64,000 nt of DNA from Treponema sp. (GTDB taxonomy: Bacteria > Spirochaetota > Spirochaetia > Treponematales > Treponemataceae). Numbering within the stretch: the first letter of the stretch is position 1; every line of letters starts with the position of its first letter. The notes below the pieces were generated by a model, which was not told the origin of the DNA, made no database searches, and worked only from the letters and a program-made list of their open reading frames with translations. Of this stretch, positions 6,185 through 48,865 are shown in pieces. Location of the stretch: the NCBI GenBank assembly GCA_034088785.1, contig JAXDVS010000128.1, positions 49,709-113,708 on the forward strand, read 5' to 3'. Position numbers and translations under genes: made by a program.

Positions 6185-6350
6185 GTCATGCCGAATTTAT
6201 TTCAGCATCTCTTTTACAGATTCCGAAATAAATTCGGAATGACTGGCTTTCGTTCAGAATGAAACTGTCATGCTGAACTCGCGGTTTCAACCGCGTATTT
6301 AGATTCAGCATCTTTTTTTATAGATTCCGAAATCGAGTTCGGAATGACAA
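6185..6350. repeat. REP-like palindrome cluster
   Basis: Four GTCAT...ATCT family units; one carries a nested hairpin (CGCGGTTTCAACCGCG) in its loop. Confidence 0.85.
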
Positions 6351-8310: not shown

Positions 8311-8478
8311 CTGTCATGCTGAATTTATTTCAGCAACTCTTTTATAGATTCCGAAACAAGTTCGGAATGACTTGCATTCATTAAAAATAAAGCTGTCATG
8401 CTGAAAATTTATTTCAGCATCTTTTGAATACAGATTCCGAATCAAAGCGAACACTAAAGTGTTCGAGTTCGGAATGAC
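8311..8478. repeat. REP-like palindrome cluster
   Basis: Four units as two head-to-head pairs; the last carries a nested hairpin (CGAACACTAAAGTGTTCG). Confidence 0.85.
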
Positions 8479-12907: not shown

Positions 12908-14995
12908 CTAAACTCTAAACATCAGGTCGGCGTAGTTCGGGAACGGCTTGAATTTTTCTCCAAGCAACGGCTCGATTTTGTCCGCAACCGCGCGTGTCGC
13001 TTCCATCTGCGGAATCACCTTGTCGGCGTAGTCGCGCGCCTGCTTTGCAACGTCTTTCTCGTTCTCAGCCGCATTGTGAATGTTCTCGAGCTTTTCTGTC
13101 TCAAAATTCAGCTTATCGGCAAGAGAAGTCATTTTTTCAAGAAGCGTTGTCTGGGCGGCGCATCTCGCGTTCGCAACGAGATTTCTCACCTTCGCCGCGC
13201 TGTCGGCAACCGCGTCCATATAAGCGTAGCTCGCCGGAAGAATGTCCTTGTAAATCATATCAATCATTGTCTTGACTTCAATGTTCAAGGTCTTCGAGTA
13301 TTTTTCGAGCTTGATTTCATGGTGGCTTCTCATCTCGGACTCTGTGTAGATTCCGTATTTTGAGAACATCTCAACATTCTTTCTGTCAAGATAATGCTCC
13401 ATCGCGTCCGGCAAAGTCTTTAGATTCATAAGACCGCGCTTTTCAGCCTCTTTCACCCAGTCGTCGGAATATCCGTTTCCGTTGAAGATGATTTTCTTGT
13501 GATTTTTAATCGTCTCTTTTACAAGTTTCTGCAAGTCGGAGATAAAATCATCAGAATTTTCAAGTTTCGACGCGAACTCGTCCAAAGTTTCGGCGACAAT
13601 CGTGTTCAAGACAACGTTCGGGCCTGAAATTGAAAGGGAAGAGCCAAGCGAGCGGAATTCAAACTTGTTTCCGGTAAACGCGAACGGAGAAGTCCTGTTT
13701 CTGTCGGTCGTGTCTTTCGGAATTGAAGGCAGAACAGAAACACCGATTTTCATTCTCTCTTTTGACTTCTGCGAGTAAGGAGTTCCATTTTCAATCGAGT
13801 CGAGAACCGCCTGAAGCTCGTCGCCGATAAACATCGAGATAATCGCAGGCGGCGCCTCGTTCGCGCCAAGACGGTGGTCGTTTCCAGCAGAGGCAACCGA
13901 GTCGCGGAGCAAATCCTGATGCTTGTCCACAGCCTGAATCACCGCCATCAAGAACAAGATAAACTGCGCATTGTCGCGCGGAGTCTCGCCCGGCTCAAGG
14001 AGATTCTGGCCGTCGTCAGTCCCCATAGACCAGTTGTTGTGCTTTCCAGAGCCGTTCACGCCAGCGAAAGGCTTTTCCGCAAGAAGGCAGTAAAGGCCGT
14101 GCCTGTCCGCGACTTTTTTCATCATCTGCATTGTAAGCTGGTTCTGATCCGCGCTCAGGTTTGTCGTCGTGAAAATCGGAGCCATCTCGTGCTGGGCTGG
14201 AGCAACCTCGTTGTGCTTTGTCTTGCTCAAAATTCCAAGTTTCCAAAGCTCCGTGTCCAAGTCCGCCATAAATTCAGCGACGCGAGGCTTTATCTGTCCG
14301 TAGTAATGGTCGTCCATCTCCTGGCCTTTCGGCGGCATTGCCCCGAAAAGAGTTCTTCCGCAGAAAATCAAATCCTTGCGCTGTTTCCAAAGATTCTTGT
14401 CGATTAAAAAATATTCCTGCTCAGGACCGACAGTCGTAACAACGCGCTTTGCAGCAGTGTTTCCAAAAAGGCGCAAGATTCTAAGAGCCTGCTTGTTCAA
14501 CGCTTCCATTGAGCGCAAAAGCGGGGTTTTCTTGTCCAAAGACTCGCCGGTATAAGAACAAAACGCAGTCGGAATGTAGAGAGAGCCGTCTTTTATGAAC
14601 GCGTAGGAAGTCGGATCCCATGCCGTGTAGCCTCGCGCCTCGAAAGTTGCGCGGAGACCGCCGGAAGGAAAAGAAGAGCCGTCAACCTCGCCTTTCACAA
14701 GCTCCTTTCCGCTGAATTCCATAATCACGCCAGAGTCTCCGAACGGCTGGATAAAGCTGTCGTGCTTTTCGGCTGTAAGACCGTTCAGCGGCTGAAACCA
14801 GTGCGTAAAATGAGTCGCTCCTTTTTCGGTCGCCCAGTCTTTCATCGTGTTTGCAACGACATTCGCCACGTCAAGCTCCAGCGGAGTCCCTTCCTTTATC
14901 GTCTTTTTGAGAGACTTGTAGACATCTTTCGGCAGACGGGCGCGCATAACGTCATCATTAAAAACCATGCTTCCAAAAATTTCTGGAACGTTCAT
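12908..14995 (-). CDS. glnA: Glutamine synthetase type III
   Basis: 695 aa with motifs [64 protein letters not shown] and [18 protein letters not shown]. Confidence 0.96.
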
Positions 14996-15464
14996 AAAAT
15001 CTCCTTATAAAACTCCGCACTAGCGGCGAACCACGGATGGCGAGAATCACAGCTTGTAAAAGCAACGCTTGAGCAAACTGCAATGATAAAAATTACACGG
15101 AAGCAATTTTTATCATGCCTCCCTGATTTATTTTGTGCTGTCAAAAAAGCCTCGCCACTCTGAAAGCGAACATAAAAATGTCCGCGTTCGGAATGACAAT
15201 AATTTTTCAACTTCATAGGCAGCCGCATTTTTTTCATACTTTCGGTTCTTGTTTTTTTTCAGATAAAACTAAAGTTACCAAGAAAAACAAGAAACGCCCT
15301 GCAACTCCTTTAAGCGGAAGCAAAGGCTTCAATTTTTTTCAAAGCCAGCCGTGTAAAATCTTGAAATAAACTCAGCATGGCCGCATTTTCCAGCAAGCCA
15401 TAATTAGCGCGGCTATCGCAGAACGCCCTGTTCTATTCTTCTCGTTCTATCTTTTTTTGATTTC

Positions 15465-16766
15465 TTACTTTGCCTTGTGCCGCTTATCAAGCTCGTCGTA
15501 AACGTCTTTCCACGCGACACCTTCTTTGTACATCAGAACGCTTACAAAATAAAGCAAGTCCGCGGCTTCCCAGATTACGTCCTCTTTTGTCTCGGCCTCG
15601 TCTGTAAGCTCCTCGGCTTCCTCCATAATCTTCTCGCGCACGCGCTTTGAGTCGAGAGTCGCGGTGTAGCTTCCAGGCTTCGGATTCGCGAATCTTTCAG
15701 CGATTGTCGAGTAAAGCCGCTCTAGACTTGATTTCGGGTCAGGGTCGGAAGAAAAGCAAGTGTAAGAGCCAGTGTGGCAAACTCCGCCGTTCGGAAGAAC
15801 TGTCGCAAGAACAGTGTCGCGGTCGCAGTCAGCGCGCATTTTTACAAGCTCCAAGAAATGGCCGCTTGTCTCGCCTTTTGTCCAAAGCTTGTTCCGAGTT
15901 CTGCTGAAGAAAGTGAGCTTTCCAGTCTCGAAAGTTTTCTCAAAAGCCTCTCTGTTCGAATATCCGAGCATCAAAACCTCGCCCGAAGGAGACTGCGCGA
16001 TGACAGGAATCATTCCGTTTGTCTTCTCAAAATCAAGGCAGCCGATAAAAGCGTCTTTAAGCGAGACCGCGCCAGTATAAAGAGCCATTCCAAGCTGAAC
16101 GTCGCAGCCGATTTTTTCAAGCTCTGCAATCTGCTCAACTGAATTGACGCCGCCGGCAACAACAACGCGGCATTTCACAGCGCCGCGTAAAGCCTTGCAC
16201 GCTTCCATGTCAGTTCCCTGCATGCAGCCTTCTTTTTCAACGCAGGTGAACAAAAGCTCCGACGCGTATTTTTCAGCCTGCTTCGCGCCTTCAATCAGCG
16301 GAATGTCAACAGTCTCAGTCCAGCCTTTCACCGCGATTTTTCCGTTGATTGCGTCAACAGAAATAATCACGCGCTGCTTTCCAATCGCCTTGCAAAGCTC
16401 TTCCAAAAATTCTTCGTTCAGGACAGACTCGCCGTCTTTAGGATTCGGATTCCAAGCAGCCGAGCCGACGATGACTTTCTCAGCTCCAAGCGAAATAAGC
16501 TCACGCGCCTTTTTCACATCGCGGATTCCGCCGCCCACACGCACATTTCCGCGCCTGAGCAAATGCTTCAAAAGCTCCGTGTTCTTTGTGTTGCCTTTCT
16601 CATCAGTGTTGCGAAGCGCCTGATCCAAGTCGATAATCGCAACCTCGCCGTATTTATTAAAATCAGAAATCAAATTATCCGCATCGTCACGCTGGAGCAT
16701 CAAATCCTTGCCGTTTTTCAGCTGCACAACGTGTCCGTCTTTCATATCAATAGAAGAAATTACCAT
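15465..16766 (-). CDS. hisA/hisIE: Trifunctional histidine biosynthesis fusion HisA-HisI-HisE
   Basis: N-terminal HisA barrel (SSIDMKDG, VGGGIR, SVDA, AGGV, GMALY). It is followed by HisI (FFSRTRNKLWTKGETSGH, DCDRD, CHTG..TCF) and HisE (KIMEEAEE, WEAADLLY). Start placed at ATG 16766. Confidence 0.9.
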   Translation of the reverse strand: MVISSIDMKDGHVVQLKNGKDLMLQRDDADNLISDFNKYGEVAIIDLDQALRNTDEKGNTKNTELLKHLLRRGNVRVGGGIRDVKKARELISLGAEKVIVGSAAWNPNPKDGESVLNEEFLEELCKAIGKQRVIISVDAINGKIAVKGWTETVDIPLIEGAKQAEKYASELLFTCVEKEGCMQGTDMEACKALRGAVKCRVVVAGGVNSVEQIAELEKIGCDVQLGMALYTGAVSLKDAFIGCLDFEKTNGMIPVIAQSPSGEVLMLGYSNREAFEKTFETGKLTFFSRTRNKLWTKGETSGHFLELVKMRADCDRDTVLATVLPNGGVCHTGSYTCFSSDPDPKSSLERLYSTIAERFANPKPGSYTATLDSKRVREKIMEEAEELTDEAETKEDVIWEAADLLYFVSVLMYKEGVAWKDVYDELDKRHKAK

Positions 16767-16919: not shown

Positions 16920-17165
16920 AAGTCCTCAAAAACAAGCCCCGCTATCCGCGGCTCCGCTCTCGCTCCGTTGCTCCGCAACGGCTTCGCCGCCGCTACTATC
17001 GGGCGTAGCACTTTCTTCAGCGCACGTGCTTTTCCTGAAACAAGGCGGCACGGATGCCGCCTTAAAGCAATTTCATCACCGCGAGTTTTCGCCAGAAAAC
17101 TTGTCAGCGACAGGATGTCGCAAGTTCTCGTAGGACGGAAAATTACATGGAGGTAATTTTTCTTT
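16920..17165. repeat. Multi-hairpin intergenic module with A(N)GGA(T/G) loops
   Basis: Hairpins GGCGGC-ACGGAT-GCCGCC, GAGTTTTC-GCCA-GAAAACT, GCGAC-AGGAT-GTCGC and GAAAATTAC-ATGGAG-GTAATTTTC. The same architecture recurs at 44358-44532 and 46323-46402. Confidence 0.75.
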
Positions 17166-17255
17166 CTCATATTTTAAACATTTTTCACGCAAATTTATAA
17201 TTACATATCGAAAATCTCGGGCTTAAAATCTTTGTATTGGAGGAAAATTCTGAAT

Positions 17256-18514: not shown

Positions 18515-18597
18515 CAGATTCCGAATCAAAGCGAGCATTAAAATGCTCGAGTTTGGAATGACAGCCTCACGTCATGCTGAATTTATTTCAGCATCTG
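18515..18597. repeat. REP-like palindrome pair
   Basis: GATTCCGAATCAAAGCGAGCATTAAAATGCTCGAGTTTGGAATGAC with a nested hairpin, plus GTCATGCTGAATTTATTTCAGCATCT. Confidence 0.8.
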
Positions 18598-25269: not shown

Positions 25270-25385
25270 ACGTCATTCTGAACTCGTTTCAGAATCTATA
25301 TGACGTATTTTCTTTAATGCAGATGCTGAAATAAATTCAGCATGACACAAAAAAACACGTCATTCCGAATTTAATTCGGAATCCG
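25270..25385. repeat. REP-like palindrome cluster
   Basis: Three GTCAT...ATC family units downstream of tRNA-Cys. Confidence 0.85.
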
Positions 25386-36000: not shown

Positions 36001-36350
36001 ACGTCATTCCGAGCTTGACTCGGAATCTATATTTTAAATGCAGATGCTGAAACGAGTTCAGCATGACGGCGTTTCATATTCTCGTCATTCCGAATTTATT
36101 TCAGAATCCGTATTTTATATTCCCGTCATTCCGAACCTGTTTCGGAATCTACATTTTATATTCTCGTCATTCCGAGCTTGACTCGGAATCTACATTCTAA
36201 ACGCAGATGCTGAAACGAAGCGGAATTCAGCATGACGACCGAAAATTCCGCATGACGGCGTTTCATATTCCCGTCATTCCGAGCTTGACTCGGAATATGC
36301 TTGCAAGACACAACGCAGATGCTGAATCAAAGCGGAATTCAGCATGACAA
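36001..36350. repeat. Largest REP-like cluster (about 8 units, mixed orientation, internal duplication)
   Basis: GTCATTCCGAGCTTGACTCGGAAT occurs 3 times, AGATGCTGAA..TTCAGCATGAC occurs 3 times, and the GCATGACGGCGTTTCATATTC block is duplicated. Confidence 0.9.
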
Positions 36351-44263: not shown

Positions 44264-44532
44264 CGTCATGCTGAATTTATTTCAGCATCTACACTAGATA
44301 CAACACAGAGATTCCGAATCAAGTTCGGAATGACACTCAATTACAACAAAAAAAACTGCCGCACGGATGCGGCGGATAAGCGAAGAGAGAATTTTCGAAG
44401 AAAATTCTCGTTAGAAAGAAAACTAAAAAGCCTAGCCCACGGACGGGCTAAAAGCAAGTGAAGCTCTACAAAGCTGAGTTTTCGGAGAAAACTCGTTATG
44501 AAAGAGAAAATTACAGGATGTAATTTTCTCTT
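44264..44532. repeat. REP pair plus GGA-loop multi-hairpin module
   Basis: GTCATGCTGAATTTATTTCAGCATCT and GATTCCGAATCAAGTTCGGAATGAC, then GCCGC-ACGGAT-GCGGC, TAGCCC-ACGGAC-GGGCTA and GAAAATTAC-AGGAT-GTAATTTTC. Confidence 0.85.
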
Positions 44533-44537
44533 TCACC

Positions 44538-46244
44538 TTATTCCGAAGGAATCAAAATGTCTGTTCCCGAAATAATCAGGTCTGGATTCTTGATGTGGTT
44601 GTAGTTCGCGATTTTCGGATATTTCCACGGATTTTTATAATAAGAGTCCGACAAATCCCAAAGAGTGTCTCCCCAGCGGATATGATATTTCACGTCCGGC
44701 TTTTTCTCCGCTTTTGGAGCTGGAGCCGGCACAACTTTCTCAGGCTCTTTTGCGACAACAACCTTATCCTCAACCGCAGGAGCGTTCTCGCTTTCCTTTT
44801 CAGACACAACAATCTGAACCGGAGAGTCGTCAACAGGAGCGGCAGGCTCGGCATTTTTCGCGCCGTCATCAGGAAGCTCGGCAACCGCAGATTTTCCGCT
44901 GTCTGAAATTTCAGTCTTTTCCATATATCTCGTGTTGCGTGACTTTATCAGATTGTATTTTGACGGAACAATAAAAAGAACTAAGATTGTCGCAAGAACA
45001 CAAATCACCGCGCAGATTATGCAGATTACCACAGGAACGCGCGTCTTTTTCTCGCTGTCCTCGTCGTAGACCGAAGCATGCTCACCGTTCATCGTCTCCT
45101 TGTCGTACAAATCGGAAAAATCCATTGCAGAGCCGTTTGTGTAGCCCGCACCGGAATTTTCCGCAGACGGAGAACTTTTCAGGCTGTCAAGCGAAGCGTC
45201 CAAATCGGAAGTGTCAAAGTCATCGAGAGCCGAAGTGTCAAACGCGGTGTCAATGTCGCTTTCAGAAGCAGGCTTTGAAGCCAAAGCGGATTCAGACTTG
45301 AACTCGTCGTCATCAAAATCAGGCAAATCGCCGAAGTCAAGCCCGGTCGTGTCAGCAACTATATTGCTGGCCGCAATTGTTGCATTTCCGTCATCATTAT
45401 TTTTTTCAGCGTCCGCGCCGTTTTCAGGGATTTTAGTCTCATCGGAATCAAAATCGTCCGTGTCAAAATCAGGAAGGTCAAAATCGCCTGTTGAAGAATC
45501 TGAAACTGTATCATCGGCAACCGTTGCGTCGGAAGCCTCGTCAGGAACTGTCTCATCACCAGTCGGCACAGGGCTGTCAAAATTCATTCCTTCAAGAGTG
45601 TTGTCCGCAATTCCCAAGTCGTCGGCATTTTCAGAATTTGGAGAATTTTCCTCAGAATCTGCAGCAGGAACTTCTGTCTTGTCCGAATCGTCAAAGCTGA
45701 ACGGCATATTCTCAAGCGCGTCAGACTTTATCTCGGGCAAGTCGTCAGGAGACAAAGCCGCGTCCTTTTCTTCCTCCTCTGCAAGAGTGTCGTCCGCCAA
45801 GTCGTCAAAAGAATAATCCTCGCCGTCGGCTAAAAGCCCGTTCGCGCCGTCATTTTCGCCTGAACCAGACTTTAGAGACGGAGCAAAATCAGCAGGGCTT
45901 GCCTTTTCAGCAAGCGTCTTTGAAACGAGATTCACTTCCGTCTCGCTTTTTTTGCCGGTTTCAGGGTCAATCACCTCGGCAGAAAGATTGTTGTCCTCGT
46001 CAAGACCGAGCGAAAGATGAAGCTCCGGCTCGCCGTTCGGGTGCGGAACAAGCTTCGTCACCTCAAGCGTGTCAACGTATTCCGCGTCGTCCATCGAGCC
46101 AGTCTCAGAACGATACAAGTCAATCTGAACTTTTGTCTGATTGTCTTTCGCAGTTGTCAAATCCAACATTCTCTTTTTTGGAGTTCCCTCCTCGAGAATT
46201 GGATAAAATGTTCCATCTGCAAGTTTTATTCCGATTGTCTTCAT
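44538..46244 (-). CDS. Membrane protein: Hsp70-SBD-like N-terminus, long acidic linker, TM, C-terminal LysM
   Basis: TTAKDNQTKVQIDLYR...LDEDNNLSAE recalls the DnaK substrate-binding beta domain. A TM helix VPVVICIICAVICVLATILVLFIV follows, then LysM YHIRWGDTLWDLS..YY.NPWKYPKIANYNHIKNPDLI. Confidence 0.85.
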   Translation of the reverse strand: MKTIGIKLADGTFYPILEEGTPKKRMLDLTTAKDNQTKVQIDLYRSETGSMDDAEYVDTLEVTKLVPHPNGEPELHLSLGLDEDNNLSAEVIDPETGKKSETEVNLVSKTLAEKASPADFAPSLKSGSGENDGANGLLADGEDYSFDDLADDTLAEEEEKDAALSPDDLPEIKSDALENMPFSFDDSDKTEVPAADSEENSPNSENADDLGIADNTLEGMNFDSPVPTGDETVPDEASDATVADDTVSDSSTGDFDLPDFDTDDFDSDETKIPENGADAEKNNDDGNATIAASNIVADTTGLDFGDLPDFDDDEFKSESALASKPASESDIDTAFDTSALDDFDTSDLDASLDSLKSSPSAENSGAGYTNGSAMDFSDLYDKETMNGEHASVYDEDSEKKTRVPVVICIICAVICVLATILVLFIVPSKYNLIKSRNTRYMEKTEISDSGKSAVAELPDDGAKNAEPAAPVDDSPVQIVVSEKESENAPAVEDKVVVAKEPEKVVPAPAPKAEKKPDVKYHIRWGDTLWDLSDSYYKNPWKYPKIANYNHIKNPDLIISGTDILIPSE

Positions 46245-46322
46245 ATCTTTCCCCTGAAAGTCTGATTCTTAAATTTTTTCTGTCGCAATCTAAAAGTATT
46301 TTTTTATAACTGCCTTCTCAAT

Positions 46323-46402
46323 TGCCACACGGACGTGGCGAAAAAGCAATGAGAGAACCGAAGGTTCTCGTTAATAAAAAAATTACAGGATGCAATTTTT
46401 TT
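46323..46402. repeat. Short GGA-loop multi-hairpin module
   Basis: GCCAC-ACGGAC-GTGGC, GAGAACC-GAA-GGTTCTC and AAAAAATTAC-AGGAT-GCAATTTTTT. Confidence 0.75.
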
Positions 46403-47273
46403 ATTTGGCATTTGCCGAAGAAGCCGCGCTTGCGTTTCCATTGCCATATGAATATTCGGCAATTCCGGCAAGCTCGTTCACAGTTGTTCCGAATTTTTCA
46501 GCAACATTGTATGTCGTCTTCTTTGTGATGTTTCCGTTTGAGTCGTATTTATAGATGATTCTTACAGTCAGCTTGTTCTCAGCGTCGTAAGTCTGCTCTT
46601 CTGTAATCTGGTATGAAGCGTCAAATCTGAAAACTGTCTTGTGGGTGAGCTTTGCAGCCGGGTCAGAATAAGCGATTTCGGAAAGTTTTCCAGCGTCGTT
46701 ATAAGAATAAGCCGCTTTCTGCTCGAGAGAGCCGTTCGCATTGTAAGTCGCCACCTCGCCAGTTCTTCCTTTCTCGTCGTATTTTGTGATTATTTTTGAA
46801 AGAAGCGCGCCGTCGGCATTGTAATAAGACTCGTCAACCTGCTTTCCGTCAGAAATCTTCCAGATTGTCTTGTTCACGAGAGAGTCAGAAGCGTTGAATT
46901 CGGATTCCTCAGTTTTGTTTCCATTAGCATCGTATGAGCATGAGATTTTCCACTGGATTTTTCCGTCAGCGTCTGTGCAGACCTGCTCGGCAAGATTTCC
47001 TTTCGCGTCGTAAACATAGGCGATTCTATCGACAACCGCGCCCTTGCTTGTAAGCTCGGAAGACTCGGTTTCTTTTCCGCTCGCGTCAAAAACGTGGGAA
47101 TATCTCGCCTTTGGAGAACGGTAATAGTCTCCGAATTTCTCCGTGATTGTATATTCAGTTTTTGTATATTCCCTTTCTCCGCCAAGCGGCTTCAGCGAGA
47201 CATCATTATCAAAAGCGTAGAGACTTACCGCAAATCCAGCAGCCAATGCTGAAGCAAATAAAATTCTTTTCAT
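46401..47273 (-). CDS. Secreted YD/RHS-like repeat protein
   Basis: Signal peptide and about 23-aa repeats Y.YD..GN..E (YVYDAKGN, SYDANGN, KYDEKGR, SYNDAGK, KYDSNGN). Confidence 0.8.
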   Translation of the reverse strand: MKRILFASALAAGFAVSLYAFDNDVSLKPLGGEREYTKTEYTITEKFGDYYRSPKARYSHVFDASGKETESSELTSKGAVVDRIAYVYDAKGNLAEQVCTDADGKIQWKISCSYDANGNKTEESEFNASDSLVNKTIWKISDGKQVDESYYNADGALLSKIITKYDEKGRTGEVATYNANGSLEQKAAYSYNDAGKLSEIAYSDPAAKLTHKTVFRFDASYQITEEQTYDAENKLTVRIIYKYDSNGNITKKTTYNVAEKFGTTVNELAGIAEYSYGNGNASAASSANAK

Positions 47274-48737: not shown

Positions 48738-48865
48738 AGCCAGTTCCTAATTTTTTACAGATTCCGAAATAAATTCGGAATGACGCATTTTTTTCTGTCC
48801 GCCTCGATTTCAGACTGACGCACTTTTATCTCCTTTCCTCTCATCAAAGAAAATTTTATCGCTTG

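Follow-up and report, generated by a model that had tools for sequence, protein, structure and literature searches.

We analyzed a 64,000-nucleotide stretch of Treponema sp. DNA (GenBank assembly GCA_034088785.1, contig JAXDVS010000128.1, positions 49,709 to 113,708 of the forward strand; hereafter the window), in which short modules of consecutive hairpins recur between genes. A previous reading of this sequence (the original prediction) had described three such loci plus a partial one and had suggested that their loops bind CsrA, either as Csr-sponge RNAs or as a mobile repeat that spreads CsrA sites. The shared, ordered set of hairpins was indeed present at the claimed sites. The loci are the same, but they resolve into five units at four loci (15027-15118, 17042-17166, 44356-44426, 44433-44535, and 46322-46405), all with GGA on the plus strand, and the supposedly partial locus is a complete unit. 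Judged from sequence, the modules are divergent members of a TD-1/TD-2-type superfamily, a membership that the original prediction had missed; their closest described relatives are TD-2 and its partial reverse complement, TD-1. Relative to the genes around them, the units are mostly read on the strand opposite to the one that carries GGA.

Units in the window: conserved loops on covarying stems

We named the hairpins A, B, and C on the GGA (plus) strand and A′, B′, and C′ in their minus-strand forms. In the window units they follow one another in the order A-B-C; the stems vary, and the loops keep the form C-A(N)GGAN-G. Hairpin A, which is GC-rich, has the loop ACGGAY and a C-G closing pair; hairpin B has the form GAG(A)AnnTTC, a purine-rich loop of 3 to 4 nt, GAAnnTTCTC; and hairpin C is AT-rich, an A(N)GGAN loop standing between AAAATTRC and GYAATTTT. 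Two linkers are conserved as well, AAAGCAA 3′ of A and CTCGTTA 3′ of B.

A covariance model, R1, was built from 52 units using hairpins A and C only. Applied to the 64 kb, it placed U2b, U4, and U3 at 53 to 56 bits, recovered U1 (E 3e-7) even though that unit lies outside its seed, scored U2a weakly, and found no further unit in the window. U1, U2, and U3 belong to type II, free-standing A-B-C modules that frequently lie beside a GC-rich "box" repeat. U1 (17042-17166; R1 45.1 bits) lies in a divergent intergenic region, with no strand assigned. On the plus strand it holds hairpin A at 17042-17063 (AAGGCGGC-ACGGAT-GCCGCCTT), hairpin B at 17084-17101, an extra AGGAT hairpin at 17107-17121 (GCGAC-AGGAT-GTCGC), two unpaired GGA at 17133 and 17137, and hairpin C at 17137-17162 (AAAATTAC-ATGGAG-GTAATTTT). 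The remaining units are assigned to the minus strand. U2a (44356-44426; 18.8 bits) has hairpins A (44356-44375) and B (44387-44409) only, and U2b (44433-44535; 55.8 bits) has A at 44433-44450, B at 44476-44494, and C at 44499-44535. U3 (46322-46405; 53.2 bits) has A at 46324-46339, B at 46353-46369, and C at about 46373-46403; the sole non-Watson-Crick pair in its hairpin C is A.C on the plus strand and G.U on the minus strand. U4 (15027-15118; 54.0 bits) is a type I, TD-1-like unit in the 5′ leader of a type III glutamine synthetase gene. Read on the minus strand, it comprises GGGAGGC, C′ at 15116-15087 (loop UUCCGU), B′ at about 15086-15052, and a weak A′ (loop AUCCGU).

The motifs are not scattered at random over the window. 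The C-hairpin pattern matched twice, against 0.05 matches expected from shuffles, and both of the first two loops reported as conserved are enriched on the plus strand: CAGGATG occurs three times there and never on the minus strand, and CACGGAYG seven times vs two, with about two expected per strand. As a correction to the original prediction, CATGGAGG is present just once.

Stem covariation, which the original prediction had noted, was assessed on the 52-unit alignment for the A and C helices, with column shuffles as the control. The helices were 98.1% paired compared with 72% in shuffles, and both sides of a pair had changed in 257 cells compared with 78, a count reached by none of 500 shuffles. 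Fourteen of the 20 pairs in the A and C helices covary, and pairing fell to 39 to 55% when the 3′ partners were slid. On these grounds the covariation is real. The closing C-G pair was invariant in both hairpins (51/51 and 52/52). Conservation of hairpin C is owed in part to the search pattern, a bias from which the A loop is free: among 51 GC-rich perfect hairpins found 35 to 125 nt upstream of C and chosen regardless of their loops, about 41 carried (A)NGGA(N), so that the conservation of the A loop is not an artifact of collection. The base favored directly after GGA is U, present there in about 50% of C loops; written out in full, the loops follow C-A-N-GGA-(U>G,C>A)-G.

Relatives beyond the window and the TD-1 and TD-2 motifs

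Relatives were collected in two scans. The first, with an IUPAC pattern on one genome per species, was too loose, and about three-quarters of its matches were chance hits outside Treponema; about 27 of the 120 genome loci came from Treponema or other spirochaete metagenome-assembled genomes (MAGs) of ruminant, pig, and horse guts, and these contained whole modules. The second scan, with a tighter pattern on metagenomes, gave 123 matches in several architectures that have hairpin C in common. R1 found 109 matches on 100 metagenome loci, including clusters of two to four units in the same orientation. Among the first 100 genome loci it exceeded 50 bits 18 times, on 17 loci, of which 15 are labelled Treponema or Spirochaetia and two are unclassified bacterial MAGs. 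More than 150 relatives were found, nearly all from gut Treponema, and the repeat superfamily appears to be restricted to Treponema.

The commonest architecture is type I, to which U4 belongs. In GGA orientation it runs from CAT (the start of an opposite-strand gene) through N5-8, CTCCTATAAAACT, CCGCGTTAGCGG, A, B, and C to (A/G)CCTCC. Type III is an element of about 170 nt with five hairpins, highly repeated in one metagenome (loci L125, L137, L151, L155, L166, L201, L211, L238, and other Ga0268262 contigs). Its hairpin C reads GAATTC-AAAATTGC-ATGGAG-GCAATTTT-GAATT and is accompanied by a hairpin GCGCGAC-ANGGAN-GTCGCGC; a GCGAAGC mini-hairpin also occurs in these elements. In type IV, an insert of about 40 nt lies within the A loop, ACGG-tatactcaaccgagccgcatagcggcgaaggttcccctctt-GAT (L169, L175 at 128-187, L215, L219, and L235). 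On the GGA strand this insert forms a small hairpin whose internal loop is GA/GAA, and L216 has a plain ACGGAT loop at the site of the insert.

At its curated thresholds, Rfam returned two tRNAs and no other match for the window, and none of 13 related loci gave a match. In E-value mode, cmscan gave TD-2 (RF03162) as the best match, on the GGA strand, at U2b (27.6 bits), U1 (21.2 bits), and U4 (17.9 bits), and the type I relative L198 reached 34.2 bits (E 7e-4). The matches at U2b, U1, U4, and L198 span model positions 1-98, that is, its full length. No unit reached the TD-2 gathering threshold of 48.7 bits, either in the window or in L198, and Rfam annotation therefore misses every copy in the window and in the 13 related loci. 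The TD-2 consensus consists of hairpin 1 (accgcc-AuGGAu-ggcggu), hairpin 2 (gcGAGUUUugcc-guaA-ggcaAAACUCg), and hairpin 3 (GcUgAAaAguGugc-AcGgAU-gcaCacUuUUcAgC). In U2b and L198 all three stems are paired and the loops aligned, and in U4 the first and third hairpins only. The loops AuGGAu and AcGgAU align throughout, and the B stem GAGUUU..AAACUC aligns in L198.

TD-1 (28-29 copies) and TD-2 (36 copies) have been described solely from Treponema denticola (Weinberg et al. 2007, PMC1950547). In that work, seven of the TD-1 copies overlap TD-2 copies read in reverse complement, and TD-1 usually lies 5′ of diverse genes (27 of the 29 copies in the paper's table); no function is proposed for either motif, and CsrA is unmentioned (PMC1950547). 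We found no later work on TD-1 or TD-2 in the literature searched. Overlapping matches within a clan are reduced by cmscan to the best one, here TD-2, and no TD-1 row was returned; the link to TD-1 is thus made through the published description of that motif and not through an alignment. Type I corresponds to the TD-1 configuration and type II to the TD-2 model; TD-1 and TD-2 are one three-hairpin module read on opposite strands, by description on the TD-1 side.

The finding is thus a rediscovery, in a pig-gut Treponema, of divergent TD-1/TD-2-type modules, a motif orphan since 2007 and thought to be confined to T. denticola. What is new is that the family is abundant in pig and ruminant gut Treponema, below Rfam thresholds; that it is strongly oriented with respect to gene sense, at fixed positions after a stop codon and ahead of the following ribosome-binding site (RBS); and that its loops match the CsrA/Shine-Dalgarno (SD) consensus on one strand and are anti-SD-like on the other. 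An orphan motif without a prior hypothesis now has testable ones.

Orientation and position of the units relative to genes

We compared the two strands with a test that treats them symmetrically, on 71 units. An SD sequence, start codon, and open reading frame (ORF) within 60 nt downstream were found for 33 of the 71 units on the UCC strand compared with two on the GGA strand. Likewise, an ORF of 80 codons or more had its stop codon upstream, at -12 to +25 nt, in 26 of the 71 on the UCC strand compared with seven on the GGA strand; this stop codon is frequently within the 5′ arm of C′. The ORFs flanking type I units are mostly opposite to the GGA strand (upstream, 30 opposite and four same; downstream, 29 and seven), as are those flanking type II units with an A hairpin (21 opposite vs nine same, and 21 vs seven). 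Both unit orientations occur inside single contigs of 10 to 15 kb, where the coupling follows the orientation of the gene and not that of the contig. At L175, three units occupy gaps between ORFs read on the UCC strand; in the first, the stop codon falls within the C′ arm, and in the first two, A′ abuts the RBS (AAAGGAG-N5-ATG at the second).

Within the window, the genes on either side of U2, U3, and U4 are on the minus strand. The original prediction had cautioned that, at 44.4 and 46.3 kb, both neighboring genes run antisense to GGA and that a DNA-level or terminator role was equally possible; this antisense arrangement holds, and there are terminator-like hairpins on the other strand. C′ of U2b begins 3 nt past the stop codon of an Hsp70-like/LysM gene (44538-46244, minus strand), and CUUUUUAGUU follows its A′. 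On the minus strand, A′ of U2a consists of GCCGCAUCCGUGCGGC followed by AGUUUUUUUU and resembles an intrinsic terminator; the A′ hairpins of both units, with their T-runs, were called terminator-like. C′ of U3 overlaps the stop codon of an RHS/MORN-repeat gene (46401-47273, minus strand), and its A′ ends 78 nt ahead of the start of the Hsp70-like/LysM gene (46244). Metatranscriptome contigs join U3 to both of these genes (X25, 44594-46409, depth 77; X27, 45517-46584). Several RNA and DNA runs have contigs that lack 86 nt within the RHS/MORN-repeat gene (window 46496-46583); strains probably differ here in repeat number.

At U4, the conserved type I 3′ box (14995-15030, minus strand) contains a small hairpin, CCGC-UAGU-GCGG, and then AGUUUUAUAAGGAG-N6-AUG, the RBS and start of the gene at 12908-14995 (minus strand; GSIII_N, Gln-synt_C, and Gln-synt_C-ter domains). 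The unit ends in a small hairpin, after which comes UUUUAUAAGGAG-N6-AUG of the type III glutamine synthetase gene. A terminator-like site lies in this box at 15030-15014. The 335-nt spacer between hisF-hisIE and U4 (15130-15465) has two more terminator-like hairpins on the minus strand, one at 15346-15325 and the other at 15170-15151, together with a TTGACA hexamer at 15143-15138. A separate promoter for the glutamine synthetase gene probably lies in this spacer, in which case U4 would be a true 5′ leader. At other loci, the box CCGCTAACGCGGAG-TTTTATA-AGGAG-N5-8-ATG precedes about 40 different genes on the UCC strand. Those found downstream of type I units are real and diverse and include LeuA, KduI, a radical-SAM activase, ADH, oleate hydratase, RpiB, LeuD, a TRAP binding protein, a beta-CASP RNase, and type III glutamine synthetase; because they are mutually unrelated, we rejected a riboswitch or a specific regulon. 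A leader peptide in type I was also rejected, as the ATG/GTG lies just 1 to 2 nt from the 5′ GGAGG and the frame is not conserved.

Taking strand and context together, we hold with middling confidence that the dispersed units act in cis as mRNA structure, occupying the interval from a stop codon to the following RBS or else ending the transcript; we are less confident of the exact role that this structure would play. The units would be carried on mRNAs with C-NUCCNU-G loops showing, on the minus strand here and in most relatives too. C′ would start at or over the stop codon of the preceding gene and be followed by B′ and then by the GC-rich A′. Where A′ ends in a U-run, as in U2, a terminator-like 3′ end may result; where it ends just ahead of the next RBS, as in U3 and U4, the unit would serve as an intercistronic spacer or a 5′ leader. 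The data show the family relationship, the covariation, the taxonomic range, the gene-sense orientation, and the placement relative to stop and start codons. We infer that the function lies at the RNA level: such units may set or protect the ends of mRNAs and may insulate the following RBS or modulate it, acting in cis as RNA structure, and they would have spread through duplication. The GGA-strand consensus is also a canonical SD sequence (A-A-GGA-G-G), and its complement resembles the 16S anti-SD, so that reading the mRNA-sense loops as anti-SD-like is equally simple as reading them as CsrA sites; these UCC loops could pair with a nearby GGAG. Folding favors the minus strand for U2, U3, and U4 (for U4, -45.7 vs -31.3 kcal/mol on the plus strand).

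Several observations weigh against this interpretation. U1 is in neither a stop-codon nor an RBS context. A general terminator role was rejected, as a T-run follows A′ in just 13 of the 71 units. Type III relatives tend to be GGA-sense with their flanking ORFs, and B loops form GNA triloops preferentially on the GGA strand (13 vs two in type II, eight vs none in type III). The conserved loop positions fit the CsrA SELEX (systematic evolution of ligands by exponential enrichment)/hcnA hairpin better than a plain SD or anti-SD. G.U pairs are almost absent from the stems on either strand (one of 971 cells), which is unusual for selection purely at the RNA level. Finally, transcription of the UCC strand is read from gene context, the RNA and DNA runs being Logan contigs that carry no strand. 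Adapter remnants at contig ends hint at minus-strand RNA (five of six junctions), a hint that depends on the library type and was set aside.

Competing explanations and comparison with known systems

Of the other explanations, the one that survives best is that the units are a selfish or neutral palindromic repeat, similar to miniature inverted-repeat transposable elements (MITEs) or repetitive extragenic palindromic (REP) sequences. The hairpins would act as single-stranded DNA or cruciforms, the loops would be a nuclease or transposase site, and the orientation bias would reflect the purging of insertions that place SD- or CsrA-like GGA loops in mRNAs. We regard this as unlikely. Across about 2700 stem pairs, mismatches comprise 16 G.T and 19 A.C; the two being equally rare, the wobble test gives no information on the RNA strand. 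Such strictly Watson-Crick stems are neutral on strand and may fit template-switch correction of palindromes or selection at the DNA level, from which they would be expected. Near-identical type Ia units precede unrelated genes on different contigs, tandem copies exist, and units are nested in or next to other repeats, namely the box and the ATTCCGAA hairpins described below. Assemblies of related strains branch at U3 (runs X5, X6, and X17, 20 nt outside its A hairpin, window 46301-46343), and in one U3 allele the A loop has degenerated from ACGGAC to ACGAAT, with an A.C stem mismatch, so that individual copies can decay; the metatranscriptome and DNA runs showed no clean presence/absence alleles of the units. 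The C-GNA-G triloops form very stable DNA mini-hairpins. A purely DNA-level repeat is harder to reconcile with coupling to gene orientation in both directions within single 10- to 15-kb contigs, and with the precise placement from stop codon to RBS. Moreover, the loops are kept while the stems have diverged across many Treponema species, which argues for long-term selection on each copy and not for recent bursts. Neither target-site duplications nor terminal inverted repeats were noticed, although no systematic search was made. Integron attC sites, REP/RAYT elements, and IS200/IS605 ends (considered because of the TTAC in hairpin C) were set aside because their sequence features misfit, as judged without a transposase screen; the unit sequences contain no separated R boxes (RYYYAAC..GTTRRRY), and their stems vary, unlike the conserved stem with a 5′ GTAG expected of a REP element. 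No Y1 or other transposase has been linked to the repeats, but the loci were not screened for one.

The units could instead be CsrA-binding RNA, with the GGA strand present as a free small RNA (for example, U1) or as an antisense transcript whose A and C hairpins titrate or recruit CsrA. The resemblance on which this idea was founded is genuine at the level of sequence. As had been claimed, the loops look like CsrA sites. They fit the CsrA/RsmE consensus C-A-N-GGA-N-G, and the fit extends to the closing C-G pair, invariant here, and to the preference for U after GGA, seen in about half of the C loops. The SELEX consensus for CsrA is RUACARGGAUGU; TTACAGGATGT matches it only if a gap of one base is opened and U is accepted in place of the first R, but relatives with UUAC-AGGGAU-GUAA agree at 11 of its 12 positions, and A loops such as GGC-ACGGAU-GCC are identical to the hcnA/RsmE hairpin. 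Rfam models TD-2 on the GGA strand and types it as a small RNA, and the GNA triloops are biased to that strand as well. U1, in the gap between divergent genes, has five GGA compared with one TCC in 141 nt and a U-rich tail, and T. denticola has csrA in a fliW-csrA cluster.

Orientation disfavors CsrA binding nonetheless. In most units, including at least three of the four window loci, GGA lies on the strand antisense to the flanking genes, and the three units of L175 lie between ORFs of the opposite, UCC strand. As the GGA strand is usually not the one transcribed with the neighboring genes, a Csr-sponge function is unlikely, and of the alternative first offered, a mobile repeat that spreads CsrA sites, the dispersed repeat stands and its CsrA role is disfavored. 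Each unit has two GGA in its loops (U1 and U2 have five each in total), and across the family extra GGA outside the loops shows no general excess (28 GGA vs 21 TCC in type II, six vs five in type I). In window units the two GGA loops are 57 to 75 nt apart, at or beyond the 10 to 63 nt over which one CsrA dimer is reported to bridge two sites. On the GGA strand, consensus scans picked up nothing promoter-like upstream of the units, and neither a conserved promoter nor a GC-rich terminator was seen; 3′ of hairpin C on that strand there was no intrinsic terminator, the terminator-like sites lying on the other strand. Among Csr/Rsm models, the single match was a CsrC fragment at 10.7 bits (gathering threshold 61) that covers hairpin C alone. 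U1, a possible free RNA, is nearly absent from RNA runs that do contain its neighboring genes: the depth of RNA contigs across it is 0, and 0.07 of its words occur in RNA runs compared with 0.84 to 0.94 in DNA runs. A sigma-70-like promoter of the plus-strand gene lies downstream of U1, at 17173-17201. By tblastn, neither csrA nor fliW was found in the window or the fetched loci. We therefore consider CsrA-binding RNA improbable, and a GGA-loop census on raw DNA may indicate the wrong strand.

More speculative still is a reading of the loops as a genome-wide recognition code and not as passive structure, in which hundreds of C-NUCCNU-G anti-SD mimics in mRNAs and a minority of GGA-sense CsrA hairpins form one CsrA/SD post-transcriptional network. 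Either in cis or through loop-loop kissing, the mimics would pair with RBSs that contain GGA or with GGA-loop RNAs, and the GGA-sense minority (TD-2-type units, possibly U1) would present pairs of optimal CsrA hairpins. Such a network, which we think very improbable, would include RNAs that antagonize or recruit CsrA, the first of their kind in a phylum that uses FliW, to our knowledge the only known CsrA antagonist there.

Two further repeat families lie close to the units. The companion box is a GC-rich repeat of about 80 to 100 nt, CCCGCTTTCCAGGG...CCCTTCCAATCGGGCGTAGGC, with a variable middle. The copy in the window (16931-17010, no strand assigned) reads CCCCGCTATCCGCGG...GCTAC-TATCGGGC-GTAGC and, as is often the case, accompanies a type II unit. 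The box pattern matched 20 times, 19 of them in Treponema-type loci or the window; copies occur also in L022, L025, L094, L140, L141, L143, L152, L194, L206, L208, L225, and L229, and in L141, L152, and L206 a whole A-B-C unit lies inside the box. Against Rfam, the box gave only a weak Flavo-1 match of 22.8 bits on the minus strand. A second and far more abundant intergenic hairpin repeat, ATTCCGAA-N5-TTCGGAAT and ATGCTGAA-TTTAT-TTCAGCAT, is often clustered (2046-2208, 6220-6345, 8317-8420, 18574-18594, 25275-25382, 36006-36296, 44268-44331, and 48761-48781). Its depth in DNA runs is 5 to 10 times that of its flanks, with many alternative joints.

This second repeat is REP-like, with conserved stems and varying loops, the opposite of the A-B-C units. 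REP and BIME (bacterial interspersed mosaic element) sequences are dispersed intergenic hairpins, often at the 3′ ends of genes or between cistrons, that can stabilize the upstream mRNA. The units resemble them in being dispersed, intergenic, hairpin-forming, and biased relative to transcription; in REP, however, the stem is conserved and the loop is free, and in the units the reverse holds, a comparison made without a RAYT screen. With CsrB, CsrC, RsmX, RsmY, and RsmZ the units share A(N)GGA hairpin loops closed by C-G, several per element. They differ in that they have just two such loops, that a promoter and terminator of their own are not evident, that their GGA strand is mostly antisense, and that the antagonist in this phylum is FliW.

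The closest likeness is to clan CL00124. TD-2 (RF03162) is a multicopy, intergenic motif of the same genus with the same order of hairpins, the same loops, and a purine-rich B loop; it has many copies per genome, as the window has five units in 64 kb. In contrast to TD-2, in which the stem is GugC..gCaC, hairpin C here is AT-rich (AAAATTRC..GYAATTTT); TD-2 was described from T. denticola, whereas the relatives found here come from pig and ruminant gut Treponema; and TD-2 was judged not to be cis-regulatory, whereas most relatives here are gene-sense on the opposite strand. It is TD-1, of the same clan, that the type I units, including U4, resemble in this last respect, lying directly 5′ of diverse genes on the UCC strand.

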